64,000 nucleotides of DNA, taken from Hyphomicrobiales bacterium. GTDB taxonomy: Bacteria > Pseudomonadota > Alphaproteobacteria > Rhizobiales > JAKPQE01. Under the pieces are notes generated by a model. That model worked only from the letters and a program-made list of their open reading frames with translations. It made no database searches and had not been told where the DNA came from. Position 1 is the first letter of the stretch, and every line of letters begins with the position of its first letter. Where the stretch lies: NCBI GenBank assembly GCA_041397845.1, contig JAWKVW010000009.1, forward strand, positions 26,906 through 90,905, given 5' to 3'. This document shows positions 11,577-49,275 of this stretch, one piece after another. A program made the position numbers and the translations under genes.

Positions 11577-11579
11577 CGG

Positions 11580-12314: not shown

Positions 12315-12325
12315 CAGGCTTTCAA

Positions 12326-12341
12326 TCAAACGATTGTTTGA
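12326..12341. promoter_or_regulatory. 16-bp perfect palindrome TCAAACGATTGTTTGA, candidate TetR operator
   Basis: 6-bp arms with a 4-bp spacer, 12 nt upstream of the TetR start codon. Confidence 0.35.
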
Positions 12342-12406
12342 AATATAGGGGCGCGGCGCTCTTCGGTCAAGGGTGTGTCGGGCTGGCGCGCCTTCGGGGA
12401 GGGGCG

Positions 12407-12458
12407 GCCAGTCATTGCGGCCAGTCACTGCTGCCAATCAGGGCGGCCAATCAGGGCG
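12407..12458. repeat. four tandem degenerate 13-nt repeats
   Basis: The four units are gccagtcattgcg, gccagtcactgct, gccaatcagggcg and gccaatcagggcg. They are read directly from the intergenic region between the TetR gene and the DUF2147 gene. Confidence 0.6.
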
Positions 12459-15172: not shown

Positions 15173-18160
15173 CTAATGGGCCTCGTCCCAGTTGTCGGCG
15201 GCGCGGGCGTCGACCTTGAGGGCGACTGCGAGCTGCAGGGCCGGCTCCGGGGCCTCCTCCATGACCCTGACGACGAGCGGCAGGGTCTTGTCGACTTCCG
15301 ATTCCGGCGCCTCGAAGATCAGTTCGTCGTGCACCTGCAGCAGCATGCGCGCGGCAAGGCCGGCCTTTTCGAGGGCGGCTTCCATGCGGATCATGGCGCG
15401 GCGGATGATATCGGCGGCCGAGCCCTGGATCGGGGCGTTGATGGCGGCGCGCTCGAGGAAGGCGCGCATGTTCGGGTTCTTTGTGTTGATTTCCGGATAG
15501 TGGACGCGCCGGCCGTAGATGGTCTCGACATAGCCGTTGGCGCGGGCCTTGCGCTTGGTGTCTTCCATGTAGTCGCGGATGCCGGGGAAGCGCTCGAAGT
15601 ACTTCTCGATATAGGCGCGCGCTTCCTCGCGCGAGATGGAGAGCTGGGCGGCAAGGCCGAAGGCGGAAATGCCGTAGATGATGCCGAAATTGATCGCCTT
15701 GGCGCGGCGGCGGACCATCGGGTCCATGCCCTCGATCGGCGTGTTGAACATTTCCGAGGCGGTCATGGCGTGAATGTCGAGGCCGTCGGCGAAGGCCTCG
15801 CGAAGCTGCGGAATGTCGGCGATATGGGCAAGGACGCGCAGCTCGATCTGGCTGTAGTCGGCCGAGATCAGCTTCATGCCGGGCTCGGCGACAAAGGCCG
15901 TGCGGATCTTGCGGCCGGCCTCGGTTCGCACCGGAATGTTCTGCAGGTTCGGCTCCGACGAGGAAAGCCGGCCGGTGGTGGTCGAGGCGAGGGAATAGGA
16001 GGTGTGGACGCGACGGGTCTCGGCGTTCACATAGCCGGGAATGGCGTCGGTATAGGTCGATTTCAGCTTCGACATCTGGCGCCAGTCGAGGACGCGGGCC
16101 GGCAGGTCGTGACCCTCGGCAGCGAGCGTCTCGAGAACGTCGGCGCCGGTGCCCCAGGCGCCGGTCTTGGTCTTCTTGCCGCCGGGCAGGCTGAACTTGT
16201 CGAAGAGGATTTCGCCGAGCTGCTTGGGCGAGGCGATGTTGAAGGTCTCGCCGGCAAGCTCGTGGATCTCGGCCTCGAGCGCGGCCATGCCTTGTGCGAA
16301 TTCGCCGGACAGGCGCGACAGGATCTGGCGGTCGACCTGGATGCCGCGCCGCTCCATGCGGGCGAGCACCGGCACCAGCGGGCGCTCCAGCGTTTCATAG
16401 ACGGTATCGAGCCGTTCGGCGACGAGGCGCGGCTTCAGGGCGCGCCAGAGGCGCAGCGTGACGTCGGCGTCCTCGGCGGCGTATTCGGTCGCCTTGTCGA
16501 GGGGGACGCGGTCGAAGGTGACCTGCGCCTTGCCGGTGCCGGCGACCTCCTTGAAGGAGATCGGCTTGTGGCCGAGCCAGCGCTCGGAGAGCTCGTCCAT
16601 GCCGTTGCCGCCGCGGCCGGCGTCGAGCACATAGGAAATCAGCATGGTGTCGTCGAACGGGGCGATCTCGATGCCGTAGCGCGACAACAGCAGCCAGTCG
16701 TATTTGAGGTTCTGGCCGACCTTCAGCACGGCGCGGTTTTCAAGCAGCGGCTTCAGCGCGGCAATGGCTTCGGCAAGACCGATCTGGCCGGCGACGGGAC
16801 CGCCGCCGAGAAGGTCGTCGGCGCCTTCGCGATGGCCGAGCGGCACGTAGCAGGCCCGGCCCGGCGCGGTCGCGAGGCTGAAGCCGACGAGGTCGGCGCT
16901 CATGGCGTCAAGCGAGGTCGTCTCGGTGTCGACGGCGACGACGCCAATCCGGGTGGCTTCGACAATCCACTCGTCAAGCCGGGCAAGGCTCGTGACCGTT
17001 TCGTAGCGGCTCGTGTCGATGCTGCCGGCGGTCGCCTCGTCCTTGCGGCGCTCGACCAGCATCGCCGGGGCGAGGGCGCCCTCCGGCACGGGCGCGCCGG
17101 CAGTGCTCGCGGCGACGGGCCTGCCCGCCGCTGCCTGCTCCGTTGTGGCCTTTTCCGGCGCGGCGGGGGCCGGGTCGGCGGCCGGGCCGCCATAGCCGTC
17201 GACGCGGATATCGGCAGGCGCGATCGCCGCCGGGTCGAGATTGCTTGCCTCGGCGATACGGCGGGTGAGCGTGTTGAATTCGAGCGCCTTCAGGAAGGCG
17301 ACGAGGGTTTCGCCATTGACCGGACAGATGCCGAAATCTTCCGGATCGACCTCGACCGGGGCGTCCGTGTCGAGCTCGACGAGGCGGCGGGAGATGCGCG
17401 CCTGATCGGCGAATTCGATGAGGTTCTGGCGGCGCCTGGGCTGCTTGATCTCGCCGGCGCGGGCGAGCAGGCTTTCAAGGTCGCCATATTCGCCGATGAG
17501 CTGGGCGGCGGTCTTGACACCGATGCCGGGAACGCCGGGGACATTGTCGACCGGATCGCCGGCAAGCGCCTGCACGTCGATGACCTTCTCGGGCGGCACG
17601 CCGAACTTCTCGACAACCTCGTCCGGGCCGATACGGCGGTCCTTCATGGTGTCGAAAAGCGAGACCGTCGGGCCGACGAGCTGCATCAGGTCCTTGTCCG
17701 ACGAGATCACGGTGACCTCGGCGCCGGCCGCCGTGGCGATGCGGGTATAGGTGGCGATGAGATCGTCGGCCTCGTAGCCGACAAGCTCGACCGAGGGCAG
17801 GCCGAAGGCAACGACCGCCTTGCGGATGAGCGCGAACTGGGGCACCAGGTCTTCCGGCGGGGCGGGCCGGTTGGCCTTGTAATCCTTGTAGATTTCGTTG
17901 CGGAACGTGTCGCCCTTGGCATCGAAGATGACGGCGAAATGGGTCGGCTCGTCGCCCTCCGCCGGGGTCAGGCCCTCGCGCAGGAGCTTCCAGAGCATGT
18001 TGCAGAAGCCGGCGACGGCGCCGACGGGCAGGCCGTCGGACTTGCGCGTCAGCGGCGGCAGGGCGTGATAGGCGCGGAAGATGTACCCCGAGCCGTCGAC
18101 CAGGAAGAGGTGGTCGCCGGCCTTCAGGGGGCGCTTTTCGGGGGCGGGGGCGTTTGTCAT
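15173..18160 (-). CDS. polA: DNA polymerase I
   Basis: The listed 1131-aa ORF was trimmed to the ATG at 18160 (MTNAPAPEKRPLKAGDHLFLVDGSGYIFRAYHAL). It has 5'-nuclease, 3'-5' exonuclease and polymerase domains (SADYSQIELRVLAH, QVHDELIFE). Confidence 0.95.
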   Translation of the reverse strand: MTNAPAPEKRPLKAGDHLFLVDGSGYIFRAYHALPPLTRKSDGLPVGAVAGFCNMLWKLLREGLTPAEGDEPTHFAVIFDAKGDTFRNEIYKDYKANRPAPPEDLVPQFALIRKAVVAFGLPSVELVGYEADDLIATYTRIATAAGAEVTVISSDKDLMQLVGPTVSLFDTMKDRRIGPDEVVEKFGVPPEKVIDVQALAGDPVDNVPGVPGIGVKTAAQLIGEYGDLESLLARAGEIKQPRRRQNLIEFADQARISRRLVELDTDAPVEVDPEDFGICPVNGETLVAFLKALEFNTLTRRIAEASNLDPAAIAPADIRVDGYGGPAADPAPAAPEKATTEQAAAGRPVAASTAGAPVPEGALAPAMLVERRKDEATAGSIDTSRYETVTSLARLDEWIVEATRIGVVAVDTETTSLDAMSADLVGFSLATAPGRACYVPLGHREGADDLLGGGPVAGQIGLAEAIAALKPLLENRAVLKVGQNLKYDWLLLSRYGIEIAPFDDTMLISYVLDAGRGGNGMDELSERWLGHKPISFKEVAGTGKAQVTFDRVPLDKATEYAAEDADVTLRLWRALKPRLVAERLDTVYETLERPLVPVLARMERRGIQVDRQILSRLSGEFAQGMAALEAEIHELAGETFNIASPKQLGEILFDKFSLPGGKKTKTGAWGTGADVLETLAAEGHDLPARVLDWRQMSKLKSTYTDAIPGYVNAETRRVHTSYSLASTTTGRLSSSEPNLQNIPVRTEAGRKIRTAFVAEPGMKLISADYSQIELRVLAHIADIPQLREAFADGLDIHAMTASEMFNTPIEGMDPMVRRRAKAINFGIIYGISAFGLAAQLSISREEARAYIEKYFERFPGIRDYMEDTKRKARANGYVETIYGRRVHYPEINTKNPNMRAFLERAAINAPIQGSAADIIRRAMIRMEAALEKAGLAARMLLQVHDELIFEAPESEVDKTLPLVVRVMEEAPEPALQLAVALKVDARAADNWDEAH

Positions 18161-18275
18161 CGGCGGACTATGGCACGGACGGGCGGCGGCGGCGACCCGG
18201 CAGGCGGCCGGCCGGCGGGCTGCCCACAACATGATATGGTCGCGGCACGGGAGAGGCGAATCGCTGGACGGAGCC

Positions 18276-19564
18276 ATGCGGGAACCAATCGACTTGCTAC
18301 CTGCGCGACCGGGCCTTGCGGCGGCTTTCGCTGCTCTCGCCCCGATGCTGGTGATGCTGCTGGCAGCACTCATGGCACAGCCGGCGCTGGCCCTCGACAA
18401 GGCGGGCGTCGAGCGGCAGTTCCACGCCTGGATCGAGAGCGACGTCTGGCCGGCGGCGAAGAAGGCCGGCATTTCGCGCGCCACCTTCGCGGTCATGGAC
18501 GGAACGCAACTCGACTGGTCGCTGCCCGATCTCGTGCCGCCGGGGACAAAGCAGCCGGCGAGCGACATGCGGCAGTCGGAATTCGGCAGTCCGGGGCGCT
18601 ATTTCGACGAGAAAAAGCTGGCGCCGCTGATCAGCCTCGGGCGCGAGCGCCTTGCCAAATACAAGGACACGCTGGCGGCGGTGGAGAAGCGGTTCGGCGT
18701 GCCGGGGCCGATCGTCGTTGCCATCTGGGGCCGGGAATCAGGCTTTGGCCGGGTCAAGCTGCCGAACGAGGCGATCCGGTCGCTGGCGACGCTTGCCTTC
18801 ATGGGGGCGCGGCGCGAGGATTTCTTCGCCGAGCTGATCGCGGCGCTGAAAATCCTCGAGGCTGACCACATCACCGCCGACCGGCTGCATTCCTCCTGGG
18901 CCGGGGCGCTTGGCCAGCCGCAGTTCCTGCCCTCGAAATTCCTTGCCCATGCCATCGACTTCGACGGCGACGGGCGGCGTGACATCTGGGATTCGGTTCC
19001 CGATACGCTCGGCTCGATCGGCAACTACCCGGGTGGCAAAAGCACGGCTGGCAGGCGGGCCGCGACTGGGGTTTCGAGGCGGATGTGCCGGCGGCGGTTT
19101 CCTGCGCGCTCGAGGGGCCGGACAAGGGCCAGCCGATCGCGACCTGGGAAAAGGCCGGCGTTGCCCGCGTCGGCGGGCGGGAGTTTCCGGCAAGCGAGCG
19201 CGGACGGCAGGGGTTCCTCCTGATGCCGGCCGGCCGGTTTGGTCCGGCGTTCATCGCGACGGAGAATTTCTACGTGCTGAAGGCCTATAACGAGAGCGAT
19301 CTCTACGCGCTCTTCATCGGCCACCTTGCCGACCGGATGCGCGGCGGCAAGCCGTTCGCCGGGACCTGGGGCGAGGTCGACAAGCTCAACCGGCTGGCGG
19401 TGCGCCAGATGCAGGAACGGCTGGAAAAGCGCGGCGTCGACGTCGGCGGCGCCGACGGGCTCGTCGGTTTTCGCACCCGCGTCGCGGTCGGCGTCTGGCA
19501 GGCCGACAACGGCCTTTCGCCGACCTGCTATCCAGATTCAAGGCTGGTCGGCAAGGTGCGGTAA
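18276..19564 (+). pseudogene. lytic murein transglycosylase (MltB/SLT_2-like) with a C-terminal peptidoglycan-binding domain; reading frame broken near 19029-19034
   Basis: Signal peptide from the ATG at 18276. The catalytic region (AIWGRESGFG, WAGALGQPQFLPS) runs to ...SIGNY in one frame. The homologous continuation (GWQKHGWQAGRDWGFEADVPAAVSC... then ADGLVGFRTRVAVGVWQ) is in the -1 frame (ORF 19085..19564). The break is at a cccggg run. Confidence 0.75.
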
Positions 19565-19668: not shown

Positions 19669-20523
19669 ATGGCAGTGGACGGGATCAGGCAGATGGCGGA
19701 ACGGGAGGTCATGCGGGCGATTTTCGATCGCTCCTTCCTCGGGTCATTGGTCAGCCGGCGCGAGTTGCTGGCGCGCCTGACACGCCGGGACATCGAGAGC
19801 CGGTTCCGCGGCTCGCGGCTCGGCATGTACTGGGCGCTGGTGTCGCCGGTCGTCATCCTGTCGATCTACACGGTGGCGTTCAGCGCCATCATCCAGCCGC
19901 GCTGGCAGGCTTCGGTCGATCACAAGACCGACGTCGCACTGATCTATTTTTCCGGCCTCGTGCTGTTCGACTTCTTCATCGAGTGCCTGAACCGCTCGTC
20001 GAACCTGATGCATGACCACCGCTTCTACATCAAGCGCATGGTCTTTCCGGTCGATATCCTCGCCTATGTGGTGGTGTTCGGGGCGGCCTTCCGGCTGGTC
20101 ATCGGCGTTTTCCTGCTGCTCCTGCTCTACGTCGCGACGCATGGGTCGCTGCCGCTCGAATTCCTGCTCCTGCCGATCCCGCTGGCGTTCCTGGCGCTCT
20201 TTGCCCTCGGCATCATCTGGTTCGTGTCGGCAATCGGCGCCTATGCCAAGGATGTCGGTCTTCTCATCGGCGCGCTGGCGCCGGTGCTGATGTTCATCAG
20301 CCCGGTGTTTTTTCCCTCGACGATGATCCCGGCGACCTGGCGGGCGGTGCTCTACATCAATCCGCTGACCGTACCGATCGAGTGGGTGCGGGCGGTGCTG
20401 TTCCATTTCGAGCGGCCGTCGGTGCTGGCGCTCGTCGTCTACGCGCTTCTTTCGGTGCTTGTCGCCCATCTCGGCTTCCGGGTTTTCCAGCGGCTGCGGG
20501 GCGAGTTCGCCGACCTGCTCTGA
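19669..20523 (+). CDS. ABC-2 type polysaccharide/glycolipid export permease (Wzm/KpsM/TagG-like)
   Basis: 284 aa. The N-terminus is RRELLARLTRRDIESRFRGSRLGMYWALVSPVV, followed by 6 TM segments. Confidence 0.8.
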   Translation: MAVDGIRQMAEREVMRAIFDRSFLGSLVSRRELLARLTRRDIESRFRGSRLGMYWALVSPVVILSIYTVAFSAIIQPRWQASVDHKTDVALIYFSGLVLFDFFIECLNRSSNLMHDHRFYIKRMVFPVDILAYVVVFGAAFRLVIGVFLLLLLYVATHGSLPLEFLLLPIPLAFLALFALGIIWFVSAIGAYAKDVGLLIGALAPVLMFISPVFFPSTMIPATWRAVLYINPLTVPIEWVRAVLFHFERPSVLALVVYALLSVLVAHLGFRVFQRLRGEFADLL

Positions 20524-20535: not shown

Positions 20536-21663
20536 GTGGCTGCCATCGAAGTCCTCGCCGCGATCATCCTTGTCGTCGCCCTTGCGGTGCGGATCGGTTC
20601 GCTCGTCATCGCCGCGGCGCAGCCGGCTTTGGCGCGGCGGCGGGCGCGGCGCGACGGCCGGCCGGGCGTTTCGGTGCTCGTGCCGGTGAAGATCGTCGAT
20701 GCGGCGTTCGAGCAGGCGCTCGTCTCGCTTGTCGGGCAGGATTATCCGGATTTCGAAATCGTCATCTGCGGCGATGCGGCCTCGGAAGCGGCGTTCGCGG
20801 CGGCGCGGGCGATCGTTGGCGCCACGCCGCCAGTGCCGGTTTCCTTCGCGCTCGCGACCCGCAGCGTTGGCCCCAATCCGAAGATCACCAACCTTGCCGC
20901 CGGCGTCGCGGTCGCCAGCCGGGAGCTGCTGCTCATCAAGGATTCCAACATCGTGATGGAGCCGGACGGGCTGTCGCGGCTGGTTGAAGCACTGGCCGAG
21001 GGCGTCGGCCTTGTCTGCGCGATCCCGGTGGCGGAAGCAGCAGACGGTTTTGCCTCGCAGATCGAGCAGTCGGTGATGAACGGCCATGCCGCGCCGCTGG
21101 TCCTTGCCGGTTCGGCGCTCGGGCTCGACATCGGCTATGGCAAGGTGATGCTGGTGCGGCGCCCGGACTTCGATGCGATCGATGGCATCCGGGTGATGGC
21201 GCCGCATTTCGGCGACGACCATGCGCTCGCCATGGCGCTGAGGTCCCGCGGTCTGCGGACCGCGTTCACCGGCGCGCCGGTGTGGCAACCGCTCGGGCGA
21301 CGGCGGATCGCCGATGTCGCGGACCGGCAGTTGCGCTGGATGGTCATTCGGCGCGACCAGGCCTTTGCCGCCTTCCTCACCGAGCCGCTTTCAACGGCAA
21401 GCTTCGCGGTGCTTGCGGCAGTGCTCGCGGTGCCGGTCATCGGGATTGGCGGGCCAGCGCTCGCCGGGCTCGTGGCGCTGGTCTGGATCGTCACCGAGAT
21501 GCTGTTCCTCGCCGCGCGCGGCTGGGGCGTGCCGACTGCGACGCCGGCGGCGATCGTTGCCCGCGAGGCGCTGGTGCTCGCCCTCTGGGTCCGGGCCTGG
21601 TTTGCCCGCAAGGTCACATGGCGCGGGGCGTCGTTCGAAGTCGGCGGCGGCGAGGGCGCCTAA
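20536..21663 (+). CDS. GT-A fold glycosyltransferase, GT2/GT21 (ceramide-glucosyltransferase-like)
   Basis: 375 aa with a GTG start and an N-terminal TM. It has GVSVLVPV...QDYPDFEIVICGDA and a (Q/R)xxRW motif (DRQLRWMVIRR), followed by C-terminal TM segments. Confidence 0.7.
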   Translation: MAAIEVLAAIILVVALAVRIGSLVIAAAQPALARRRARRDGRPGVSVLVPVKIVDAAFEQALVSLVGQDYPDFEIVICGDAASEAAFAAARAIVGATPPVPVSFALATRSVGPNPKITNLAAGVAVASRELLLIKDSNIVMEPDGLSRLVEALAEGVGLVCAIPVAEAADGFASQIEQSVMNGHAAPLVLAGSALGLDIGYGKVMLVRRPDFDAIDGIRVMAPHFGDDHALAMALRSRGLRTAFTGAPVWQPLGRRRIADVADRQLRWMVIRRDQAFAAFLTEPLSTASFAVLAAVLAVPVIGIGGPALAGLVALVWIVTEMLFLAARGWGVPTATPAAIVAREALVLALWVRAWFARKVTWRGASFEVGGGEGA

Positions 21664-21665
21664 TC

Positions 21666-22499
21666 TCAGGCCTTGCCGCCGGGGCGGCCGATCCATTCGA
21701 CGACCCGGTCGGTCGTTTCGGTGATCTCGACCTCGATGCCGGCCATGACGCGGTCGACGATGCGGCGCGGCAGATAGCGCAGGAGCGCCGTCGCAAAGAC
21801 GATGATGCGCGGGAAGGCGACGACGGCGCGGCCCCGGTCAAGGCCGCGACGGATGATCCGGGCGGCGCGCTCCGGCGGCATGGCGAAGGGCTTGGGGCAT
21901 TCGAGATCGGCATTGAGCGGCGTCGTGACAAAGCCCGGGACGATCAGCGTCACGCCGACGCCGAAGCGGGCAAGGCTGCCGCGCATCGAATCGGCCCAGG
22001 CGTGCACGGCCGATTTCGCCGCGCAATAGGCCGGCGAATAGAGCATGCCCTTCAGGCCCGAGATCGAGCCGACGACGGCAATGCGGCCGGCCCGGCGGCG
22101 GGACATCGGCTCGAGCAAAGGCTCGACGGTGTTGAGGACGCCGACGAGATTGACGGCGAGGAGGGCGCGGACCGCCTCGGGCGTCTCGAACGGACGATCG
22201 CGGCCGATGCCGCCGGTGACGCCGGCATTGGCGATGGCGAGGTCGATCGGGGTCTCGCGATCGATGGCGGTGATGAAACCGGCAAGTGCGAGGCGGTCGC
22301 GCACGTCGATGGCGCCGATCGTTACCGTCGCGCCTTTCTGCCGGGCGGCGGTGGCGACCTCTTCAAGGCGATCGGCGTTGCGGCCGATGAGGACAAGGTG
22401 GCGACCGGGTGCGGCGTATTCGAGGGCCAATGCCCGGCCGATGCCGCTCGAGGCGCCGGTGATGAGAACCGAGGCGGGACGTGGCGGGGTTCTGGACAT
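21666..22499 (-). CDS. classical short-chain dehydrogenase/reductase (SDR)
   Basis: 277 aa with TGxxxGxG (ITGASSGIGRA), NAG and YxxxK (YCAAK). It is the only minus-strand gene between wzm and wzt. Confidence 0.85.
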   Translation of the reverse strand: MSRTPPRPASVLITGASSGIGRALALEYAAPGRHLVLIGRNADRLEEVATAARQKGATVTIGAIDVRDRLALAGFITAIDRETPIDLAIANAGVTGGIGRDRPFETPEAVRALLAVNLVGVLNTVEPLLEPMSRRRAGRIAVVGSISGLKGMLYSPAYCAAKSAVHAWADSMRGSLARFGVGVTLIVPGFVTTPLNADLECPKPFAMPPERAARIIRRGLDRGRAVVAFPRIIVFATALLRYLPRRIVDRVMAGIEVEITETTDRVVEWIGRPGGKA

Positions 22500-22703
22500 G
22501 GGCTTTCAGCGGCTCCGGGTTCGGCAAACGGCAGGCGAAATCGCGCAGACGCTTTCCAACGCACCATCGGAACGCCGGCGCGGCGCGGGTGCGGCGGGAC
22601 GTCCGGCGTCAACGATCATTGCCATTGGTTTATAGACGGAACCGGGACGAGTGGCTAAACCTCTGTGCGAACGGGAAAACAAAACGCCGGCGCCTGTCAT
22701 CGC

Positions 22704-23441
22704 ATGAGCGAAGAATACGTCATCGAGGCCGAAAACCTCTCCAAGAGGTTCGACACGCGGTGGAATCGCGGCGGGGCGCGGCTGCTCGGCCATATCACCG
22801 GGCGCGAGCCGCCGGACGAGCATGTCTTCACCGTCTTTTCCGGCGTCAGCTTCAAGGTGCGCAAGGGCGAGTCTGTCGGCATTCTCGGCGTCAACGGCGC
22901 CGGCAAGTCGACGCTGCTGCAGGTCGTTGCCGGGGTGATGGTGCCGACCAGCGGGCGGGTTTCGGTCAAGGGGCGCGTCTCGGCCCTGCTCGAGCTCGGC
23001 GCCGGCTTCAATCCGGAATTCAGCGGCCGGGAAAACATCTTCCTCAATGCCTCCATTCTCGGCTTTTCCAATGCCGAGATCGAGCGGCTGCTGCCGTCGA
23101 TCCTCGCCTTCGCGGCGGTCGAGGACCAGTTCATCGACCGGCCGGTGAAGACCTATTCGAGCGGCATGTATGTGCGTCTCGCCTTCTCGGTGGCGATCCA
23201 TGTCAGTCCGGACGTGCTCATCGTCGACGAGGCGCTGGCCGTCGGCGACCAGTTCTTCCAGAAGAAGTGCTACGCCTTCCTGCAGAACCAGATGGCGGGC
23301 GTGACCAAGCTGTTCGTCACCCACGACGCGGGGGCATTGCGCCTTCTGGCCGACCGGGCGCTCGTCATCGACCGGCATGGCCTCATCTTCGACGGTGACA
23401 TCGAAGAGGCGATAGAAATCTACCGCAACGAGCATCCCTGA
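22704..23441 (+). CDS. polysaccharide/glycolipid ABC exporter ATP-binding protein (Wzt/KpsT/TagH-like)
   Basis: The ORF was trimmed to the ATG at 22704. It has Walker A (GVNGAGKST), signature (YSSGMYVRL) and Walker B (VLIVDEA). Confidence 0.85.
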   Translation: MSEEYVIEAENLSKRFDTRWNRGGARLLGHITGREPPDEHVFTVFSGVSFKVRKGESVGILGVNGAGKSTLLQVVAGVMVPTSGRVSVKGRVSALLELGAGFNPEFSGRENIFLNASILGFSNAEIERLLPSILAFAAVEDQFIDRPVKTYSSGMYVRLAFSVAIHVSPDVLIVDEALAVGDQFFQKKCYAFLQNQMAGVTKLFVTHDAGALRLLADRALVIDRHGLIFDGDIEEAIEIYRNEHP

Positions 23442-23537
23442 GGCTGGCTACGGCAACAAACGACCGGTGTTTGACAATTTTCCCGCCGCGGCTACTGATT
23501 GGGGACGCCCGCCGGCAAATTGCGTGTGAGTATTCGA

Positions 23538-24772
23538 ATGGCCGAAGACCTTCATTCCCTTGATGCCTATGCGGCACGGTTGTTCCGGCTCGGCGGCGGA
23601 GCAGCGGTGGCCGGCGGCAGAACCCGTATTTTCTCGCCCTCGACGAGGCGCGGCTGGCGGCCGAGGCGGAAGGGCGGCGGTTCGTCTCCTTTGCCAATTA
23701 CGACTATCTCGGCCTGTCGCGCCATCCCGAGGTGGAGCGGGCGGCGGCGGGGGCGCTGGAGCGGTTCGGCACCGGGGCGCTCGCCTCGCGCATCGTCGGC
23801 GGCGAGCGGTCGATCCATCGCGAATTCGAGCGGGCGCTCGCCGGCTTCTGCGGCAGCGAGGACGCGCTGACGCTGGTCAGCGGCTTTCTCACCAACGCGT
23901 CGCTGATCAGCCACATCATGGGGCCGAACGACTGCATCGTCATCGACGAGCTGTCGCATGCCTCGATCGTCAACGGCACGAAATGCGGCCGGGCGACGAC
24001 CTACAAGTTCCGGCACAACGATCTCGATCATCTCGACCACGTACTGGCGGCGCAGCGCGGCGGCCATGGCCACTGCCTGATCGTCGTCGAGGGCCTTTAC
24101 AGCATGGATGGCGACGTGCCGGACCTGACACGGCTCCTTGAAATCAAGGACCGTCACAAGGCCTGGCTGCTCATCGACGAGGCGCATTCGCATGGCGTGC
24201 TCGGCGCCGGCGGGCGCGGCATCGCCGAGCATTTCGGCGAAGATCCGGCGCGGATCGACCTTGTCGTCGGCACGCTGTCGAAGACCTTCGTTTCATGCGG
24301 CGGCTTCATCGGCGCGGCGAAGTCGGTCATCGACCTCTTGCGGTTCTCGTTGCCCGGCTTCGTCTTCAGCGTCGGCATGCCGCCGATGGTGACGGCATCG
24401 GCCATGAAGGCGCTCGAGCTGGTCTCGAGGGAGAGCTGGCGGGTCGGCAAGCTTGCCGAGAACACGGCCTATTTCATGGAGCTGGCGCATGCCGCCGGGC
24501 TCGACACCGGGCCGGCGATCGGCCGGGCGGTGGTGCCGATCTTCTTTGCCAGGGCGGCAGAGACGATGATCGCCTCGGAACGGCTTCTCGAGGAAGGCTT
24601 CTATGCGCCGCCGATCGTGCAGATTGGCGTGCCGAAAGACATGCCGCGCATCCGTTTCTTCTTCTCGGCAGCGCACGAAAAGGCGGATATCGCCCGCGCG
24701 GTCGACATTCTCGCGGGCGTTGCGACCGAGCTTGGCGCGGTGCGGCCGCGCACGACCGAGCCGGCCGATTAA
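23538..24772 (+). pseudogene. PLP-dependent alpha-oxoamine synthase (serine palmitoyltransferase / 8-amino-7-oxononanoate synthase family); apparent frameshift near 23612-23621
   Basis: The ATG at 23538 gives MAEDLHSLDAYAARLFRLGGGAAVAGG. The conserved continuation NPYFLALDEARLAAEAEGRRFVSFANYDYLGLSRHPEV... is in the -1 frame. That frame has no start codon before the GTG at 23732 and has an upstream stop at 23561. The PLP-lysine motif is GTLSKTF. Confidence 0.75.
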
Positions 24773-24850: not shown

Positions 24851-25891
24851 ATGGGCCGCATCCTTTATGGCGTCATGGGCGATCGCGGCGGCCACCTGTC
24901 CCGGGCGATCGCCGTCGCCCACGAACTGCCCGGCCACGAGATCCTGTTCGTCGGCGGCGGGCGGATCGGCGAGGTCGAGCGGCACGGCTTCAGTTTCCAG
25001 CGCACGCCGATGATCGGCACCGAGATGACGGGCGGGCGGATCGACCTTGCCGCGACGATCACCGGGGCCATTCGCGAACTCTGGCGCTACCGCCAGACAA
25101 TCGAGCACCTCAAGGGGCTCATTGACGAATACGATCCGGACCTCATCGTCACTGACTTCGAGTTTTTCCTGCCGCGGGCGGCGCGGGCGCTCGGCCGGCC
25201 AGCGATAAGTCTCGACCGGCACCACGCGATCACCCATTGCCAGTACGACCGGCCGCCCGGGCATTTCGGCACGCGGGCGCTGTCGCTCGGCATTCTCCAC
25301 TCGATGCAGATGGCCGCCGACCGCTACATGGTCGTGTCGTTCGCGCCGATGGAGCCACGCGACCCGATCGCCGCGGAGGTCTATCCGCCGGTCATCCGCC
25401 GCGATCTGAGCGGCTTCTCGCCGGCCGAAGACGAGCACGCCGTCGTCTATCTCTACGGGGTGACGATCGAACGTATCCGCGAGGTTTTCGGCGGCCGCGA
25501 GCGGCGCTTCGTCGTCTATGGCCAGGGCAGGGAAGGCGAAGAGGGCAATCTCGTCTTCCGGCGCCATTCGACGGACGGGTTCCTCGCCGATCTCGCCAGC
25601 GCCGCCTATGTCGTCAGTCATGGCGGCCACAACCTGATTTCCGAGGCGTTGCACTTCCGCAAGCCGCTGCTCGCCTTTCCGCTCGGCTTTGAATACGAGC
25701 AGTATTTCAATGCCTGGCAGCTTCAGCAGACCGGCTATGGCGCTCTCGGCGAGGCACGGCAGGCGCGGGCAGCACTCGACCGCTTCGAAGTTGATCTCGA
25801 GGGGTTAAGGCAGCGGCTCGCCGGCTACCGGCCATGGTCGGAGCGCACGGTCGCCGACCGGTTCGACGAACTCGTCCGGGTCGGGCTCTAA
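24851..25891 (+). CDS. glycosyltransferase (MurG/GT28-like C-terminal domain, MJ1255-type)
   Basis: 346 aa. The N-terminus is MGRILYGVMGDRGGHLSRAI and the C-terminal motif is SHGGHNLISEALHFRKPLLAFPL...EQYFNA. Confidence 0.7.
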   Translation: MGRILYGVMGDRGGHLSRAIAVAHELPGHEILFVGGGRIGEVERHGFSFQRTPMIGTEMTGGRIDLAATITGAIRELWRYRQTIEHLKGLIDEYDPDLIVTDFEFFLPRAARALGRPAISLDRHHAITHCQYDRPPGHFGTRALSLGILHSMQMAADRYMVVSFAPMEPRDPIAAEVYPPVIRRDLSGFSPAEDEHAVVYLYGVTIERIREVFGGRERRFVVYGQGREGEEGNLVFRRHSTDGFLADLASAAYVVSHGGHNLISEALHFRKPLLAFPLGFEYEQYFNAWQLQQTGYGALGEARQARAALDRFEVDLEGLRQRLAGYRPWSERTVADRFDELVRVGL

Positions 25892-26886
25892 GCTTTTTCC
25901 CCTGTCCGCATTTCTTCGGCGCGATGCCAGTCCCAGGCGGTGCGGACAATCGTCTCGATGCCGGAATGCACCGGATCGAAGCCGAGGGTGGCGCGGGCAA
26001 GGGCGGGATCGGCGACGAGAGCGGCCGGATCGCCCGGCCGGCGCGGGCCGGAAATCGCCGGCAGCGCCATGCCCGAGACCTTCTCGATCGCCGCCAGAAC
26101 CTCGCGCACCGAATTGCCGGTGCCGGAACCAAGATTGAAGATGCCGCCGTCATGGCCGGAATTCAGCAATCCGAGCGCGGCGACGTGTGCGGCGGCAAGG
26201 TCGGTGACGTGGACATAGTCGCGGATCGCGGTGCCGTCCGGGGTCGGGAAATCGCTGCCGAAGACGGCGAAGTCGGCGATGCGGCCGAGGAGGGCGAGGA
26301 TCGCCCGGGGAATGAGGTGGCTTTCCGGGTCGTGGCGCTCGCCGATCTCGCCGTCGGGATCGGCACCGGCGGCATTGAAATAGCGCAGGGTGACCGAGCG
26401 CGTGCCATAGGCGGCACCGAAATCGGCCAGCGCCTGCTCGATCATCCGCTTCGTGCGGGCGTAAGGATTGATCGGGGCGATCGGGGTCGTTTCGGCGATC
26501 GGCACCCTGTCGACATTGCCGTAAACCGAACAGGTGCCGGAAAAGACGATGCGGCCGCAGCCGGCGGCGCGCATGGCGGCAAGCAGCGACAGGGCGCCGG
26601 CGACGTTGTTGTCATAATATTTCTGCGGGTCGAGGACGGACTCGCCAACCTCGGCGCAGGCGGCGAAGTGCAGGACCGCCTCGGCCCTTGTGTCCCGAAG
26701 GACACGCTCGAGGGCGGCAGTGTCGCGGATATCCCCTTCGACCAATGGCCCCCAGCGCACGAAATCGGCATGGCCGGTCGACAGATTGTCGAAGACTATC
26801 GGCGAAAAACCATTTCTCGACAGTGCTTTGCAGGTGTGCGAGCCGATATAGCCGGCGCCGCCGACAACAAGGACTGGTCGTGTCAT
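25888..26886 (-). CDS. galE: UDP-glucose 4-epimerase
   Basis: The listed 761-aa ORF was trimmed to the ATG at 26886. Motifs: VLVVGGAGYIGSH, YARTK (YxxxK), RYFNAAGADPDGEIGE and RDYVHVTDLA. Confidence 0.9.
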   Translation of the reverse strand: MTRPVLVVGGAGYIGSHTCKALSRNGFSPIVFDNLSTGHADFVRWGPLVEGDIRDTAALERVLRDTRAEAVLHFAACAEVGESVLDPQKYYDNNVAGALSLLAAMRAAGCGRIVFSGTCSVYGNVDRVPIAETTPIAPINPYARTKRMIEQALADFGAAYGTRSVTLRYFNAAGADPDGEIGERHDPESHLIPRAILALLGRIADFAVFGSDFPTPDGTAIRDYVHVTDLAAAHVAALGLLNSGHDGGIFNLGSGTGNSVREVLAAIEKVSGMALPAISGPRRPGDPAALVADPALARATLGFDPVHSGIETIVRTAWDWHRAEEMRTGEKA

Positions 26887-27105: not shown

Positions 27106-28314
27106 ATGTCCATGCTCGCGTATCAGGCAGCCGGTATCGTCAAGCTCGCGCCCACCATGCTGGAGCGTCCGCGCTTTGCGCTGGAGACGGGAAAGCTGCT
27201 CGTCAGCCGCCTCCTTCTCGACAGACGCGTGCCGCGCGACGGCGTCGGCGCCGGTATCCGCCAGGTCAGCATCCGCATCACCGACCGCTGCAATCTGCGC
27301 TGCCATACCTGCGGCCAGTGGGGCGACAACGGCTATCTGCTCGACAAGTCGCTTGCCGATCTCGTGCGCAACGAGGTGTCGGCCGAGCGCTACATCGAGC
27401 TCGTCAAGGATCTCGCCGCCAACGGCCATCGGCCGGGGCTTTATCTCTGGGGCGGCGAGCCGATGCTCTATCGCGGCGCCATCGATCTCATCCGCGAGGC
27501 GGCCGATCTCGGCATGCCGACCAGCATCGCGACGAACGGCTCGCGCATCGCCGAGAACGCCGAGGCGCTTGTCGCCGCGCCGCTCTATCTGGCGCAGATG
27601 TCGATCGACGGCCATTCGGCAGAAGTGCACAACGCCTGCCGGCCGGGCGCCGGTCCCTCGACCGACAATTTCCGCACGGTGATGGGGGCGCTCGACGCGC
27701 TGAAGGCGGAGCGCGAGCGCAAGGGCACGCGCCTGCCGATCCTTGCCGGGCTTTGCACCATCAACCAGCGTAACGCCGACCATCTCGTCGACGTCTACGA
27801 AGCCTTTGCCGACAAGCTCGACGTGCTCGTCTTCTACCTCTCCTGGTGGATCGACGAAGACGCGGCGGCAAAGCACACCGACGACTTCAGCCGCCGTTTC
27901 GGCTTTGCCCCGGATCGCCATCTCGGCTGGATCGGCGGCTGGCGGCCGGAGAACTACACCGCGCTTTCCCAGCAGCTCACCGAGCTTGCGCGCCGCTCGC
28001 TGTCGCCGAAAGGGCCGGCGGTGTTCATCCTGCCGCATCTGACGAGCGCGGCCGATCTCGAGCGCTACTACACGGATCACGGCGCGACGTTCGGCCATGA
28101 CCGGTGCTCGTCGATCTATCGGGCGGTCGAGATCAACGCCAATGGCGACATGTCGCCCTGCCGTGACTACCACGACTACGTCGTCGGCAACGTCAAGGAC
28201 GATACGATCACCGGCATCTGGAACAACGACAAATATCGCGATTTCCGGCGCAGCCTTGCCAAGGATGGGTTGATGCCGGTTTGCACGCGCTGTTGCGGCC
28301 TGATGGGCAACTGA
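27106..28314 (+). CDS. radical SAM protein with C-terminal SPASM/twitch domain
   Basis: The ORF was trimmed to the ATG at 27106. It has a CxxxCxxC motif (DRCNLRCHTCGQWG) and a Cys-rich C-terminus (CSSIY...CRDYHDYVVGNV...CTRCCGLMGN). Confidence 0.8.
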   Translation: MSMLAYQAAGIVKLAPTMLERPRFALETGKLLVSRLLLDRRVPRDGVGAGIRQVSIRITDRCNLRCHTCGQWGDNGYLLDKSLADLVRNEVSAERYIELVKDLAANGHRPGLYLWGGEPMLYRGAIDLIREAADLGMPTSIATNGSRIAENAEALVAAPLYLAQMSIDGHSAEVHNACRPGAGPSTDNFRTVMGALDALKAERERKGTRLPILAGLCTINQRNADHLVDVYEAFADKLDVLVFYLSWWIDEDAAAKHTDDFSRRFGFAPDRHLGWIGGWRPENYTALSQQLTELARRSLSPKGPAVFILPHLTSAADLERYYTDHGATFGHDRCSSIYRAVEINANGDMSPCRDYHDYVVGNVKDDTITGIWNNDKYRDFRRSLAKDGLMPVCTRCCGLMGN

Positions 28315-28371: not shown

Positions 28372-29589
28372 ATGCGTACCGCCTATATCCTGCTCTGGTT
28401 TCCGAAACCGACCGAGACCTTCATTTTCCGCGAGGTGCGCAACCTCGAAAGGTTCGGGCTGCCGCTGAAGATGTTCTCGCTCTATGGCCCGTGGACGCGG
28501 GACCTTTCGGCCGAGATGGCCTCGGTCGCCGACCGGACCGAGCGGCTCGGCATCAGGGGCCTGCCGAAGATCGTCTCCGGGATTGCCTACTGGCTGGCGC
28601 GGGAGCCGGGAAAGGTCGGCGCGCTCGTTCGCACGGCCTTGCTGCGGCGCTGGTCCGGCGTCGAGAAGACGGCCGAAAACCTCTGGGCCTTCCTTGCCGG
28701 CTTCCACCTTGCCCGGCGTTTTCGGGAAGAGGGAATCGAGCACATTCATGCGCCCTGGGCGAGCGGGCCGGCGACGGCGGCCTGGGTCGCGGCGCGACTG
28801 ACCGGCAAGCCCTTCACCTTCACGGCGCGGGCCTGGGACATCTATCCGCCGGATGCGCTGATCGGTGAGAAGATCGCCGAGGCGGCGTTCGTGCGCTGCG
28901 AGACGGGCGCCAACGTCAAGCACCTGATGGCGATTTCCGGCCAGCCGGAGACGAAATTCGAGCTGACCTACAACGGCGTGCCGCTCGTCGCCGAAGGGGC
29001 GGCGGAGGTGCCGATGCAGCAGCCGGTGCGGATGCTGGCGATGGGCCGGTTCGTTGCCAAGAAGGGGTTCGACCAGCTCATCCGCGCGGCGCGGCTGATG
29101 GCCGATCGCGGCGTCGATTTCCGCCTCACTTTTGCCGGCGACGGGCCGCTGCGCGGCCAGCTCGAGGCACTTGGCGCCGAACTCGGCATCGCCGATCGGG
29201 TGATTTTTCCTGGCTATGTCTCCTACGATCAGGTCGGGGCCTATTTCATGGCGACCGACATGGTGGTGATGCCCTGCGTCGTCGCAGCATCGGACGACCG
29301 CGACGGCATTCCGACGGTGATCATCGAGGCGCTGCTGCATCGCCTGCCGGTGGTCTCGACGGCGGTCTCGGGCATTCCCGAGCTCGTCGAGAACGAGGTG
29401 ACGGGGATGCTGGTCGAGCAGCGCGATCCGGAAGCGCTGGCCGGGGCAATCCTCAAGCTTGCCGGCGACCGGGACTTCGCGCTGCGGCTTGCCGAGGCCG
29501 GGCGGGCGCGGGTGCACGAGCGCTTCGATCCGGAGAAGAACCACCGGCGTGTCCTTGCCCTTTACGAAGGGATCGGGTCACGGCAATGA
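28372..29589 (+). CDS. glycosyltransferase family 4 (WcaL-like)
   Basis: 405 aa. The N-terminus is AYILLWFPKPTETFIFREV and the GT-B C-terminal motif is DGIPTVIIEALLHRLPVVSTAVSGIPELVENEVTGMLV. Confidence 0.8.
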   Translation: MRTAYILLWFPKPTETFIFREVRNLERFGLPLKMFSLYGPWTRDLSAEMASVADRTERLGIRGLPKIVSGIAYWLAREPGKVGALVRTALLRRWSGVEKTAENLWAFLAGFHLARRFREEGIEHIHAPWASGPATAAWVAARLTGKPFTFTARAWDIYPPDALIGEKIAEAAFVRCETGANVKHLMAISGQPETKFELTYNGVPLVAEGAAEVPMQQPVRMLAMGRFVAKKGFDQLIRAARLMADRGVDFRLTFAGDGPLRGQLEALGAELGIADRVIFPGYVSYDQVGAYFMATDMVVMPCVVAASDDRDGIPTVIIEALLHRLPVVSTAVSGIPELVENEVTGMLVEQRDPEALAGAILKLAGDRDFALRLAEAGRARVHERFDPEKNHRRVLALYEGIGSRQ

Positions 29590-30659
29590 CGGCGGCGCGG
29601 CAACCGATCCGGCTCGTGGTGCTCCTCGAGGATCTCGATTTCGGCGGCACGCAGCGCTTTGCCACCTATCTCCTGCGCGATCTTGACCGCGACCGCTTCC
29701 GGCCGGTGCTCTGGACGCTGCGCGGCGGCGACGATTTCCGCCCGGTGGTCGAGGCGGCCGGCGTGCCGGTCGTCGATCTCGGCCGGACCGCGAAAGTCGG
29801 TCCGCTGGCGATTTTGAGGCTTGCCCTGCGCCTTTTCGGCGACCGGCCCGACGTCCTCTACACGCTGACGGTGCTGCCCAATATCTGGGGGCGGGCGTTT
29901 GCCGGGCTGCTCGGCATTCCTGTCGTTTCGGGCTATCGCAACTATCTGCCGCGCCAGCACGAATGGCTGCTGTCCCGGTTCTCGCGCCGGATCGTCGCCA
30001 ATGCCGAGCGGCTGCGCGGCGTTCTCGTCGAGCGGTTCGGCGTGCCGGCGGCAAAGGTCGCGGTCGTGCCGAACGGCGTCGATACGGCGTTTTTCCGGCC
30101 GCGCGAGGATGACGGTGCGCAGATGCCGCTTGTTCTCTGCGTCGCACGCCGGGTCGGGCGCAAGGATCTGCCGACGCTGCTTGCGGCATTCGCGGGCGTG
30201 CGGGCAAGGATGCCCGAGGCGCGGTTGCGGATCGTCGGCAACGGGCCGCTCGATGTGCCGGCGGCGCCGGGCGTCGAGGTTCTGGCAGCACCGGGCGACA
30301 TCCGGCCGCATCTTGCCGCCGCGTCGGTTTTCGCGCTTTCCTCGGTAGACGAGGGAGCGCCGAACGTCATCATCGAGGCAATGGCCAGCGGCCTGCCGGT
30401 GGTGACGACGGAAGCCGGCGGGGCCGGCGAGCTTGTGGTGCCGGGTGTGACCGGGCTGACGGTGGCGCCGGGCGATGCGGCGGGGCTTGCCGATGCACTG
30501 CTGGCGCTGCTTGGCGATGCGGCGCTGGCCGGGGAAATGGGGCGCGCCGGGCGCGAGCGGGTCGAGCGGGAATTCTCGCTTGCCCGGATGATTGCCGCGC
30601 ATGAGCGCATTCTCGCCGAAGCGGCGGGTGAGGACGGGGGTGAGGGCGATGCATCTTGA
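29586..30659 (+). CDS. glycosyltransferase family 4
   Basis: 357 aa with an EX7E-type motif ([29 protein letters not shown]). 4-nt overlap with the preceding gene. Confidence 0.8.
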
Positions 30660-31644
30660 ATCGCGCATTCTGATCACGGGCGGGGCCGGTTTTCTTGGCT
30701 CGCACCTTGCCGACAGGCTGGTCGCAGGGGGCGCCGACGTCATCTGTGCCGACAATTTCTTCACCGGATCACGCCGCAACATCCGGCACCTGCTCGACAA
30801 TTCGCATTTCGAGCTGCTGCGGCACGACATCACCTTTCCGCTCTATGTCGAAGTCGACGAGATCTACAATCTCGCCTGTCCGGCGTCGCCTGTGCACTAC
30901 CAGTACGACCCGGTGCAGACGACCAAGACCAGCGTGCACGGCGCGATCAACATGCTCGGCCTTGCCAAGCGGCTGCGGGCGCGAATCCTCCAGGCCTCGA
31001 CCTCGGAGGTCTACGGCGATCCGGAAGTGCATCCGCAGACCGAGGAATACTGGGGCAACGTCAATCCGATCGGCCCGCGCTCATGCTATGACGAGGGCAA
31101 GCGCTGCGCCGAGACGCTGTTTTTCGACTACCGGCGCCAGCACCGGCTCGGCATCAAGGTGGCGCGGATCTTCAACACCTACGGGCCGCGCATGCAGCCG
31201 AACGACGGCCGCGTCGTCTCGAATTTCATCATCCAGGCGTTGCTTGGCCGCGATCTCCACCTTTATGGCGACGGCGAGCAGACGCGCTCGTTCTGCTATG
31301 TCGACGACCTCATCGAGGCGATGGTGCGACTGATGGCGACGCCGGACGAGGTGACCGGGCCGATCAATCTCGGCAATCCGGCGGAAATGACCATTCGCGA
31401 GCTTGCCGAGAAGATCGTCGACCTCACCGGCTCGAAGTCGAAGCTGGTATTGCGGCCGCGGCCGGCGGACGATCCGTATCGGCGCAAGCCGGACATCAGC
31501 CGCGCCCGCGAGGCGCTCGACTGGGAGCCGAAAGTCGGGCTCGAAGAGGGACTGAAGCCGACGATCGCCTATTTCGAGGACCTGCTTGCCGCGATCCCGG
31601 CCGGCGATGTCGACCGCCTGCTCGGTGTCGCGGCACCGATCTGA
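30649..31644 (+). CDS. UDP-glucuronate decarboxylase (UDP-xylose synthase)
   Basis: The ORF was trimmed to the ATG at 30649. Motifs: [46 protein letters not shown] and [10 protein letters not shown]. Confidence 0.9.
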
Positions 31645-40686: not shown

Positions 40687-40699
40687 GACGGGGGCGCCG

Positions 40700-46690: not shown

Positions 46691-46699
46691 CGTCCGACC

Positions 46700-49257: not shown

Positions 49258-49275
49258 CGCTTCGTCCCTTCGCCG

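Follow-up and report, generated by a model that had tools for sequence, protein, structure and literature searches.

A gene cluster for a putative ceramide-anchored glycolipid beside the nif genes of a Hyphomicrobiales bacterium

Putative lipid-forming and export genes of the cluster

The window analysed here is a chromosomal stretch of 64,000 nucleotides with high GC content (~67%) from a Hyphomicrobiales bacterium, a wastewater alphaproteobacterium (assembly GCA_041397845.1, contig JAWKVW010000009.1). Its gene map, built from third-position GC and from Pfam and NCBIfam scans, contains a cluster of ~24 genes in ~25 kb (19669-44990), with polA and a lytic transglycosylase gene flanking it at one end and rnf and nif genes at the other. 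From the radical SAM (rSAM) gene starting at 27106 to position 44990 every gene is co-oriented, and the gaps are short or the genes overlap. We consider it fairly probable, judging from gene families and neighbourhoods, that this locus builds a ceramide-anchored glycolipid (glycosphingolipid) and delivers it to the outer membrane. Evidence of three types was used, namely family memberships and folds, co-occurrence across taxa, and intactness with likely transcription in environmental populations. Homologous loci in other genomes and metagenomes were compared by tblastn and carry labels of the form Lnnn.

The original prediction had singled out the interval 20536-24772 as a glycosphingolipid-like module inserted between the transporter genes wzm and wzt. 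Pfam scans and motif inspection recovered each gene that it named in its place, together with all of the motifs that it quoted. The interval holds a gene for a glycosyltransferase (GT) of family GT21, an opposite-strand gene for a short-chain dehydrogenase/reductase (SDR), wzt and an alpha-oxoamine synthase (AOS) gene, with wzm directly upstream. The arrangement is less simple than an insertion between wzm and wzt, since wzt itself lies inside the interval. The module is present, and the real cluster of about 24 genes is much larger than the interval drawn for it.

The GT21 gene (20536-21663, + strand) encodes a membrane protein matching Pfam Glyco_transf_21 (PF13506) with E 2e-40 and 138 bits against a gathering score of 21.7, and is our candidate for a ceramide glycosyltransferase. 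Its KDSN, FGDDHAL and DRQLRW motifs are invariant across 13 homologues, which bears out the D...DxD...(Q/R)xxRW architecture ascribed to it earlier. Residues D136, D227/D228 and R264-W268, likewise invariant in the 13 homologues, align with the Asp positions and the RxxRW motif of the solved ceramide glucosyltransferase, and ceramide glucosyltransferase was the only enzyme matched in the PDB (E 1e-32; residues 41-368 against 49-381). Homology to eukaryotic UGCG (GT21; PDB 26qf/26qs), with the conserved Asp and (Q/R)xxRW aligned, is near full-length; unlike UGCG, the window enzyme is bacterial, shares roughly 30% identity with it, and has a predicted acceptor and donor. From the gene neighbourhood only, we infer that ceramide is a candidate acceptor. 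A look-up of identical sequences returned no record for the window protein. The HpnI model (TIGR03472) was the best NCBIfam match, with 183 bits under a cut-off of 310, and HpnI, the bacteriohopanetetrol glucosamine glycosyltransferase, has the same membrane GT2/GT21 architecture; the window locus differs in having no HpnJ or HpnK. A hopanoid (HpnI/HpnJ) reading was rejected on this score, on the lack of hpn context, and on the rSAM enzymes here and in locus L098, which are not HpnJ.

The AOS (23538-24772, + strand; Aminotran_1_2, PF00155, E 1e-40) belongs to a distinct clade and has 411 amino acids (aa) when a deletion at 23618 is read through. In the window its open frame starts at 23732 and gives 346 aa; the true start at 23538 (MAEDLHSLDAYAARL...) lies in another frame, and one A added at 23618 joins both. 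This extra A is present in Illumina-based contigs of three independent wastewater or sludge DNA runs, which rules out a pseudogene, and the gene is intact at 411 aa in the population. The DELSHASI, IDEAHSHG and GTLSKTF segments align with Spt, KBL and ThAOS, and the pyridoxal-phosphate-binding lysine and the His/Asp/His active-site residues are all present. GTLSKTF had been taken as an Spt-type marker, but the corresponding motif is GTFSKS in Spts, ATLSKAW in ThAOS and GTLGKAL in KBL, so GTLSKTF is not diagnostic.

Scores against family models place this AOS below every cut-off. The NCBIfam bioF model gave 334 bits (cut-off 426), Spt-CFB 301 (640), KBL 291 (460), Spt-beta 284 (500) and Spt-alpha 209 (670), the Spt equivalog models being NF047599 (Spt-beta), NF047600 (Spt-CFB) and NF047603 (Spt-alpha). 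Among solved relatives, the promiscuous Thermus AOS was best (241 bits), followed by Sphingobacterium Spt (227), Escherichia coli KBL (211), Sphingomonas wittichii Spt (188), E. coli BioF (177) and Sphingomonas paucimobilis Spt (176). In a neighbour-joining distance tree of a few references and 80 metagenomic relatives, window-type enzymes were monophyletic in 100/100 bootstraps and stood apart from the Spt core (100), the broader Spt clade (96), KBL/ThAOS and BioF. By sequence, the AOS is neither Spt nor BioF/KBL. The Spt-like identity proposed for the synthase hence survives as a matter of context only, and the phylogeny that had been suggested as a check gave neither the Spt nor the BioF/KBL membership, the enzyme falling into a clade of its own. 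Assignments to BioF, KBL, ALAS or CqsA were rejected on the NCBIfam cut-offs and on the tree, whose small reference set comprised Spt, KBL, ThAOS and BioF enzymes and no ALAS or CqsA.

A protein of 386 aa (X386; 38009-39169, + strand) is the candidate ceramide synthase. X386 has no Pfam match above threshold, and its family of at least 894 members is mostly labelled hypothetical or, apparently wrongly, dATP pyrophosphohydrolase. It is 42% identical over ~370 aa to a gene in L015 directly behind an operon of AMP-ligase, CerR-like protein, acyl carrier protein (ACP) and Spt, in which the Spt passes the NCBIfam Spt-beta cut-off of 500 with 664 bits. The same similarity (42%) was found to the gene at the position of the bacterial ceramide synthase (bCerS) in L017, a Caulobacter-like locus with Spt, diacylglycerol-kinase-like, LptF, LptG, CDP-alcohol transferase, fatty-acid hydroxylase and cytidylyltransferase genes. 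The family call was made through these L015 and L017 homologues rather than the Caulobacter proteins (CCNA_01212) themselves. In addition, an AlphaFold (AF2) model of X386 (pLDDT 91.4) has a tandem-GNAT fold, and the top Foldseek matches are tandem GNATs (E 4e-14). We file X386 as a bCerS-family tandem-GNAT N-acyltransferase with predicted activity, and the view of this downstream GNAT-like protein as a ceramide synthase candidate thus gains support from homology and fold.

Behind X386 lies an apparent acyl-supply module. The dedicated ACP expected downstream was found at 39188-39478 (+ strand; PF00550, under the ACP equivalog cut-offs), and is kept behind bCerS in L009, L011, L013 and L098. 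It is followed by a FabF/KasA-like beta-ketoacyl-ACP synthase (KS; 39475-40686, + strand; Pfam match, TIGR03150 396 bits, cut-off 494) and by two HadA/HadB-like hot-dog dehydratase subunits (40661-41098 and 41095-41487, + strand; PS-DH and MaoC). The HadB match is weak (38 bits); the same dehydratase pair is found in L098. Mycobacterial FAS-II (AcpM, KasA/B, HadAB) likewise combines an ACP, a KasA/FabF-like KS and a two-subunit hot-dog dehydratase, but the similarity is weak, the window module encodes no reductases, and its role is proposed from gene content. A very-long-chain lipid A cluster of the AcpXL type was considered and rejected, as the locus has a single KS and its dehydratases are HadAB-like, while LpxXL is missing and bCerS is there instead.

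The SDR (21666-22499, - strand) is a candidate 3-keto-long-chain-base or 3-keto-ceramide reductase. Its description as a classical SDR in opposite orientation was confirmed by PF00106 (adh_short, E 3e-40) and by the motifs TGASSGIG (TGxxxGxG) and YCAAK (YxxxK). Its sequence is by itself unspecific: a PDB search returned generic SDRs only, and FabG models are among its NCBIfam matches. Eukaryotes and Bacteroides have a classical SDR as their 3-ketosphinganine reductase (PMC9278070). The window SDR is 39-42% identical to SDRs adjoining bCerS in L014 (1191-3347; Komagataeibacter sp. FXV2) and L016 (7771-11203), in each of which a bCerS homologue and a classical SDR are divergently paired. No CerR homologue was found in the cluster, the CerR-like protein of L015 matching only GalE, and that weakly (33% over 104 aa). 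The pairings in L014 and L016, joined in L016 by a window-type AOS, suggest a widespread AOS-SDR-bCerS pathway without CerR.

Two sets of putative export genes accompany these enzymes. The Wzm-like ABC-2 permease (19669-20523, + strand; PF01061, E 3e-20; Wzm/KpsM models weak) has an orthologue of 72% identity at the same position in L001/L006, and the Wzt-like ABC ATPase (22665-23441, + strand; PF00005; TagH and Wzt models under their cut-offs) has no Wzt_C domain. Metagenome loci of the AOS clade also repeatedly have an ABC-2 (Wzm/Wzt) pair next to the AOS, and for this reason wzm and wzt look like a component of the system, for example a flippase, rather than an interrupted O-antigen exporter. 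The second set begins three genes upstream of the bCerS homologue with an LptF/LptG-family permease (34496-35803, + strand; PF03739, E 1e-21), a candidate extractor of lipid from the inner membrane. It reaches 72 bits on the LptF model, under the cut-off, has an hhalign probability of 95% to E. coli LptF, and is only weakly similar to LptF2 of L017. Homologues accompany GT21 and were found in L008, L009, L011, L013 and L098. Next comes a soluble protein of ~466 aa (35796-37195, + strand; no Pfam or NCBIfam match) when an extra C is read in behind 35934, an indel also seen in the X2 and X8 contigs; its homologues come after the LptF-like gene in L008 and L098. The corresponding open reading frame (ORF) of the window, 36062-37195, was rejected as LptG (hhalign probability <1% to LptF and LptG). 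A DUF4833 protein (37162-37857, + strand; PF16117, E 1e-21) carries a twin-arginine-like signal peptide (RRGVLGLLGG), is probably periplasmic, and has homologues near AOS/SDR pairs in L030, L035, L052 and L062. It shows no similarity to LptC or LptA, and was rejected as LptC (hhalign probability <1%); we regard it as a candidate periplasmic partner.

Recurrence of the gene families in other loci

The GT21 clade is rare, with 17 proteins in a collection of 5.8 billion and 8 loci among 185,579 species (one genome each), and its hosts are Bradyrhizobium, other Hyphomicrobiales and Gemmatimonadota. Wherever the flank suffices, GT21 is accompanied by the bCerS/ACP/KS, SDR, AOS, rSAM, GT1_3 and LptF-like families. 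In L001/L006 the order polA-wzm-GT21-wzt-AOS-GT1_3-galE-rSAM-GT4-GT4 matches the window, and L002/L007 (Rhodobiaceae) and L004/L005 have the same core. The order is different in L009 (Bradyrhizobium sp. SZCCHNR1093), L013 (SZCCHNS2002) and L011 (an uncultured alphaproteobacterium), which run wzt ... X386-ACP-KS-...-SDR-GT21 and carry rSAM, AOS, LptF-like, GT4, GT4 and GT1_3 genes beyond GT21. The gene set is rearranged again in L010, a Longimicrobiales (Gemmatimonadota) metagenome-assembled genome, and L098 reads X386-ACP-KS-dehydratase-dehydratase-...-GT21-LptF-like. The same families co-occur in varying order in at least 7 independent loci of two phyla. Their association is not chance, and their co-occurrence in shuffled order across two phyla speaks for functional coupling.

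In contrast to GT21, the AOS clade is large, with 3,540 matches at E <= 1e-60, and includes cultured Beijerinckiaceae, in which it is common. Its members are annotated in the sources just as generic aminotransferase or BioF, and the clade may lie within the 'Spt-like clade B' of a Black Sea study (PMC11334938). Metagenome loci of this clade were taken as the 80 best matches of one scan, which are phylogenetically non-independent, and 49 of them had usable flanks. Within 5 kb of the AOS, an SDR of the window type was the commonest neighbour (23 of the 49), followed by a bCerS homologue (12/49), wzt (8), wzm (6) and DUF4833 (4); CerR and acyl-ACP synthetase were found in none of the 49. In L016 the AOS-SDR pair is divergent from bCerS. 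Moreover, in Methylocella tundrae (CP139089.1; L103, 10001-13856), which belongs to a methanotroph family with cultured members, a window-type AOS, a bCerS homologue and a Lipid_DES/FA_desaturase gene stand in a row, and the third of these carries the Pfam N-terminal domain of sphingolipid delta-4-desaturase. As a separate observation, a sister subgroup in metagenomes (L065-L096, 46-50% AOS identity) usually has, before the AOS, a KS-like gene only distantly related to the window KS (26-30% identity) and, after it, an SDR, with bCerS mostly absent within 10 kb; it may represent a different amino-lipid pathway.

In the Bradyrhizobium-type GT21 cluster the AOS slot is held by an Spt-like enzyme, which reaches 490 bits on the Spt-beta model (cut-off 500) and groups with Sphingomonas Spts in the tree. 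Because the two enzymes are non-orthologous replacements in the same slot, there is good evidence that the AOS is functionally equivalent to this Spt-like enzyme, and the AOS is predicted, by genomic context only, to work as an Spt does.

Comparison with short-read contigs of the same population revealed 1-nt deletions in the window at 23618, 35934, 42730 and 42746. Through them the AOS is split, the 36062-37195 ORF loses its N-terminus and the boundary between a GT4 and a GT2 gene becomes blurred. This looks like assembly error rather than pseudogenisation. In addition, metatranscriptome contigs cover GT21, AOS, GT1_3, rSAM, bCerS, ACP, KS and both dehydratases, which suggests in situ expression of the cluster genes, with DNA carry-over possible.

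A possible pathway and its alternatives

The products of the cluster can be arranged into a putative pathway. The ACP, the FabF/KasA-like synthase and the HadAB-like dehydratases would make or elongate a special acyl-ACP. The AOS would condense this acyl thioester with an amino acid, for which serine is the simplest guess, into a 3-keto long-chain base, which the bCerS homologue would N-acylate, and the classical SDR would reduce the 3-keto group before or after acylation. At the cytoplasmic face, GT21 may then add the first hexose from a UDP-sugar by the chemistry of the eukaryotic ceramide glucosyltransferase, with UDP-Gal or UDP-Glc supplied by GalE. Extension of the glycan by GT1_3, GT4, GT8 and GT2 enzymes could be combined with its modification by the rSAM/SPASM enzyme and a sugar dehydratase-like enzyme. 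Wzm/Wzt would flip the glycolipid across the inner membrane, and the LptF-like permease, probably with the housekeeping LptB, would hand it to the Lpt bridge, as in the Caulobacter LptF2/G2 proposal. The original prediction that every step towards a ceramide-like lipid has a candidate has strong backing from comparative genomics as regards the pathway, and fails as regards an AOS that is Spt by sequence.

Several known systems resemble this scheme in part. In the Caulobacter crescentus locus (ccna_01212-01226; bCerS, LptG2, LptF2, Spt, AcpR, CerR, ACP synthetase and LptC2, plus Sgt1/Sgt2), as in the window, an acyltransferase of the bCerS family is encoded near a permease of the LptF/G family, an ACP is dedicated and an AOS is the committing enzyme; a product bound for the outer membrane and a ceramide glycosylated by dedicated GTs would be further likenesses, as predicted here from sequence. 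In contrast, the window has an AOS of another clade, a classical SDR instead of the NDUFA9/epimerase-type CerR, a KS with HadAB-like dehydratases instead of acyl-ACP synthetase, one LptF-like gene instead of the F2/G2 pair, no LptC2, GT21 instead of Sgt1, and a Wzm/Wzt pair with about ten GTs. Caulobacter lptF2/lptG2, which lie beside bcerS, and lptC2 are needed for sphingolipid export, which uses LptB, and Sphingomonas wittichii has the same lptF/G arrangement (2026 preprint, 10.64898/2026.04.12.717747). Sphingomonas GSL-1 to GSL-4, which replace lipopolysaccharide (LPS), are ceramide-anchored oligosaccharides of the outer leaflet, and LptF/G homologues lie beside the spt operon; unlike the window, Sphingomonas has a canonical alpha-proteobacterial Spt and Sgt-like GTs, and GT21 is not reported there. 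Bacteroides (Spt, SDR reductase BT_0972, GT4 alpha-GalCer synthase) likewise reduces the 3-keto group with a classical SDR (PMC9278070), a likeness at class level, but its genes are scattered, its Spt is of CFB type and its GT is a GT4 and not a GT21.

Some points weigh against a glycosphingolipid locus. Its support consists throughout of homology and gene neighbourhood. The AOS fails the Spt tests of cut-off and clade placement, with bioF as its top model, and the SDR could be the ketoreductase of an ACP/KS/dehydratase module otherwise without one. GT21-like enzymes also act on hopanoids (HpnI), and Holzl et al. in 2005 are said to have found such enzymes of Agrobacterium and Mesorhizobium glycosylating diacylglycerol. 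GT21 is absent from all 49 AOS-clade metagenome loci, and GT21 glycosylation is hence a rare add-on and not core. As to export, the locus has one LptF/G-family gene only, followed by a gene that is not LptG, and no LptC-like gene was recognised.

These points feed alternatives of different probability. A role of the SDR as the missing beta-ketoacyl-ACP reductase of the acyl module, with the 3-keto base reduced by another enzyme or not at all, is rather unlikely: the Bradyrhizobium SDR does follow bCerS-ACP-KS-(dehydratase) in the same direction, FabG is among its models and the module has no other reductase, but SDRs of this type lie near the AOS clade in 23 of 49 loci mostly without an ACP or a close KS homologue, also adjoin bCerS in L014 and L016, and no CerR homologue was found that would do the 3-keto reduction. 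Another possibility is that two systems lie side by side, a plain ceramide-like lipid from AOS, SDR and bCerS, and an undecaprenyl-linked polysaccharide (O-antigen or capsule) or glycosyl-diacylglycerol from GT21, the other GTs and Wzm/Wzt, never attached to ceramide. Wzm/Wzt, GalE, GT4, GT2 and GT8 are typical of O-polysaccharide loci, the AOS/SDR/bCerS core is widespread without GT21, and GT21-like enzymes have non-ceramide acceptors, with HpnI the best NCBIfam match and Agrobacterium Pgt reportedly acting on diacylglycerol. We judge this unlikely in view of the presence of GT21 with bCerS, AOS or LptF-like genes in every sufficiently flanked locus, in two phyla and varied order, its place directly behind bCerS-ACP-KS-SDR in Bradyrhizobium, and the lack of a recognised initiating phosphoglycosyl transferase, Wzy or WaaL homologue in the cluster.

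The substrate of the AOS is a further point of doubt. A non-canonical amino lipid, for instance one whose base derives from glycine, alanine or cysteate (of 1-deoxy-sphingoid or capnine-like type) and is then N-acylated by bCerS and reduced by the SDR, would fit an enzyme placed apart from the Spt clade and scoring under every Spt cut-off, with a promiscuous Thermus AOS as its best solved relative, and the capnine pathway likewise pairs an AOS with an SDR-type reductase. The Spt-like enzyme in the same slot of the Bradyrhizobium-type cluster, the sphingolipid delta-4-desaturase-like gene behind AOS-bCerS in Methylocella, the free hydroxyl that GT21 would need (for example a serine-derived C1-OH) and the lack of cysteate synthase in the cluster argue for serine, and make a non-serine base quite improbable. 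Housekeeping or unrelated genes, with the AOS as BioF or KBL and the GT21 as HpnI, would agree with bioF and HpnI as the top NCBIfam models; but the scores stay far under the cut-offs (334 bits where bioF needs 426, and 183 where HpnI needs 310), all 100 of 100 bootstraps set the AOS clade apart from BioF and KBL of E. coli, the neighbourhood has no bio, tdh or hpn genes, and the rSAMs here and in L098 are not HpnJ. We consider this explanation very improbable.

Bacterial sphingolipids were long held to be rare, and the pathway has been worked out lately in Caulobacter, Bacteroides and Sphingomonas. The system type of a sphingolipid or glycosphingolipid locus with Lpt-type export is already known, as in Caulobacter and Sphingomonas; the window locus differs in its AOS clade, SDR-type reductase, KS/dehydratase module, GT21, Wzm/Wzt and unusually large glycosylation set, and would employ enzyme types not yet described for bacterial sphingolipids. 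A survey lists the canonical spt for 'a few Rhizobiales' (PMC10411912). The supposed novelty of the pathway for diazotrophic Rhizobiales is weakened by that report and by the abundance of the AOS clade in Beijerinckiaceae; it stands in so far as full-text literature searches brought up no paper describing sphingolipids from Bradyrhizobium or from Beijerinckiaceae. Such searches also returned no report tying a bacterial GT21 to sphingolipids. A more ambitious proposal is that a UGCG homologue starts the glycan of an LPS-like glycosphingolipid, that AOS clade, SDR and bCerS with their own ACP, KS and dehydratase form a third, hitherto unrecognised ceramide enzyme set, and that a long, radical-SAM-modified glycan is flipped by Wzm/Wzt and exported through a single LptF-like permease in Hyphomicrobiales, Bradyrhizobium and Gemmatimonadota, the AOS/SDR/bCerS core occurring widely among bacteria of soil and peat, cultured Beijerinckiaceae among them. 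We regard this proposal as possible, at somewhat less than an even chance.

If the glycosphingolipid reading is true, there is an extra clade of committing synthases that genome surveys keyed on canonical Spt have likely missed. Proteobacteria would then have a reductase of the SDR type, a bacterial GT21 would for the first time be connected with ceramide, and nitrogen-fixing Hyphomicrobiales would show a link between sphingolipids and export by ABC-2 and Lpt systems. The reading would also be relevant to the architecture of the outer membrane, to recognition between plants and microbes and to the evolutionary origin of glycosphingolipid enzymes in eukaryotes. Cultured carriers in Bradyrhizobium and Methylocella make the idea directly testable.

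Putative glycan-building genes and flanks

The cluster encodes about ten glycosyltransferases in total. Behind the AOS lies an MJ1255/VC2487-family glycosyltransferase (Glyco_trans_1_3, abbreviated GT1_3; 24851-25891, + strand; PF13528, E 2e-56), with 146 bits on TIGR00661, under the cut-off; its homologues adjoin the AOS in L001, L002 and L004 and are present in L009-L013. It is followed by GalE, a UDP-glucose 4-epimerase (25888-26886, - strand; TIGR01179 407 bits, above the cut-off of 262), and by the radical SAM/SPASM enzyme (27106-28314, + strand; PF04055 and PF13186, no equivalog match), which has weak PDB matches to SkfB, BlsE and BtrN and is replaced by a B12-type rSAM in L098. Two GT4 enzymes (28372-29589 and 29586-30659, + strand) precede an extended SDR resembling nucleotide-sugar dehydratases or decarboxylases (30649-31644, + strand; PF16363 and PF01370, under equivalog cut-offs). 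The rSAM/SPASM and dehydratase-like proteins are among the most conserved of the cluster. Identity of the rSAM is 77-87% in close loci (87% in L001) and 53-67% in Bradyrhizobium and Longimicrobiales (55% in Bradyrhizobium), and that of the dehydratase-like protein is 77-91% in related loci (91% in L001) and 82% in Bradyrhizobium, whereas GT21 identity is just 41-65% in the L001 and Bradyrhizobium loci. A GT8 (31668-32624), a GT2 (32628-33467) and a GT4 (33464-34486), all on the + strand, lead up to the LptF-like gene. Behind the dehydratases, a GT4 and a GT2 (41490-43626, + strand) share the boundary blurred by the deletions at 42730 and 42746, and the co-directional string ends with a 448-aa membrane protein with a faint GT87 (GT-C-like) match (43644-44990, + strand). 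Pfam and NCBIfam scans of the cluster recognised no initiating phosphoglycosyl transferase, Wzy or WaaL homologue.

Beyond the end of the cluster, the stretch 45300-63000 carries rnf genes and genes for a flavodiiron-like protein, ApbE and a SIR2_2-domain protein, with a PAS histidine kinase and, behind it, a NifA-like sigma-54 activator at 50715-53989 and with nifH at 62067-62999. The source organism is a diazotroph, and the lipid locus abuts its nif/rnf region. On the other side, the lytic transglycosylase (SLT_2) is split into 18081-19223 and 19085-19564, with a suspected indel at ~19020-19050. Farther upstream lies a separate operon of efflux type (8577-12437, - strand), which encodes a TetR/CecR regulator, an HlyD-like adaptor, an ABC ATPase and an ABC-2 permease.

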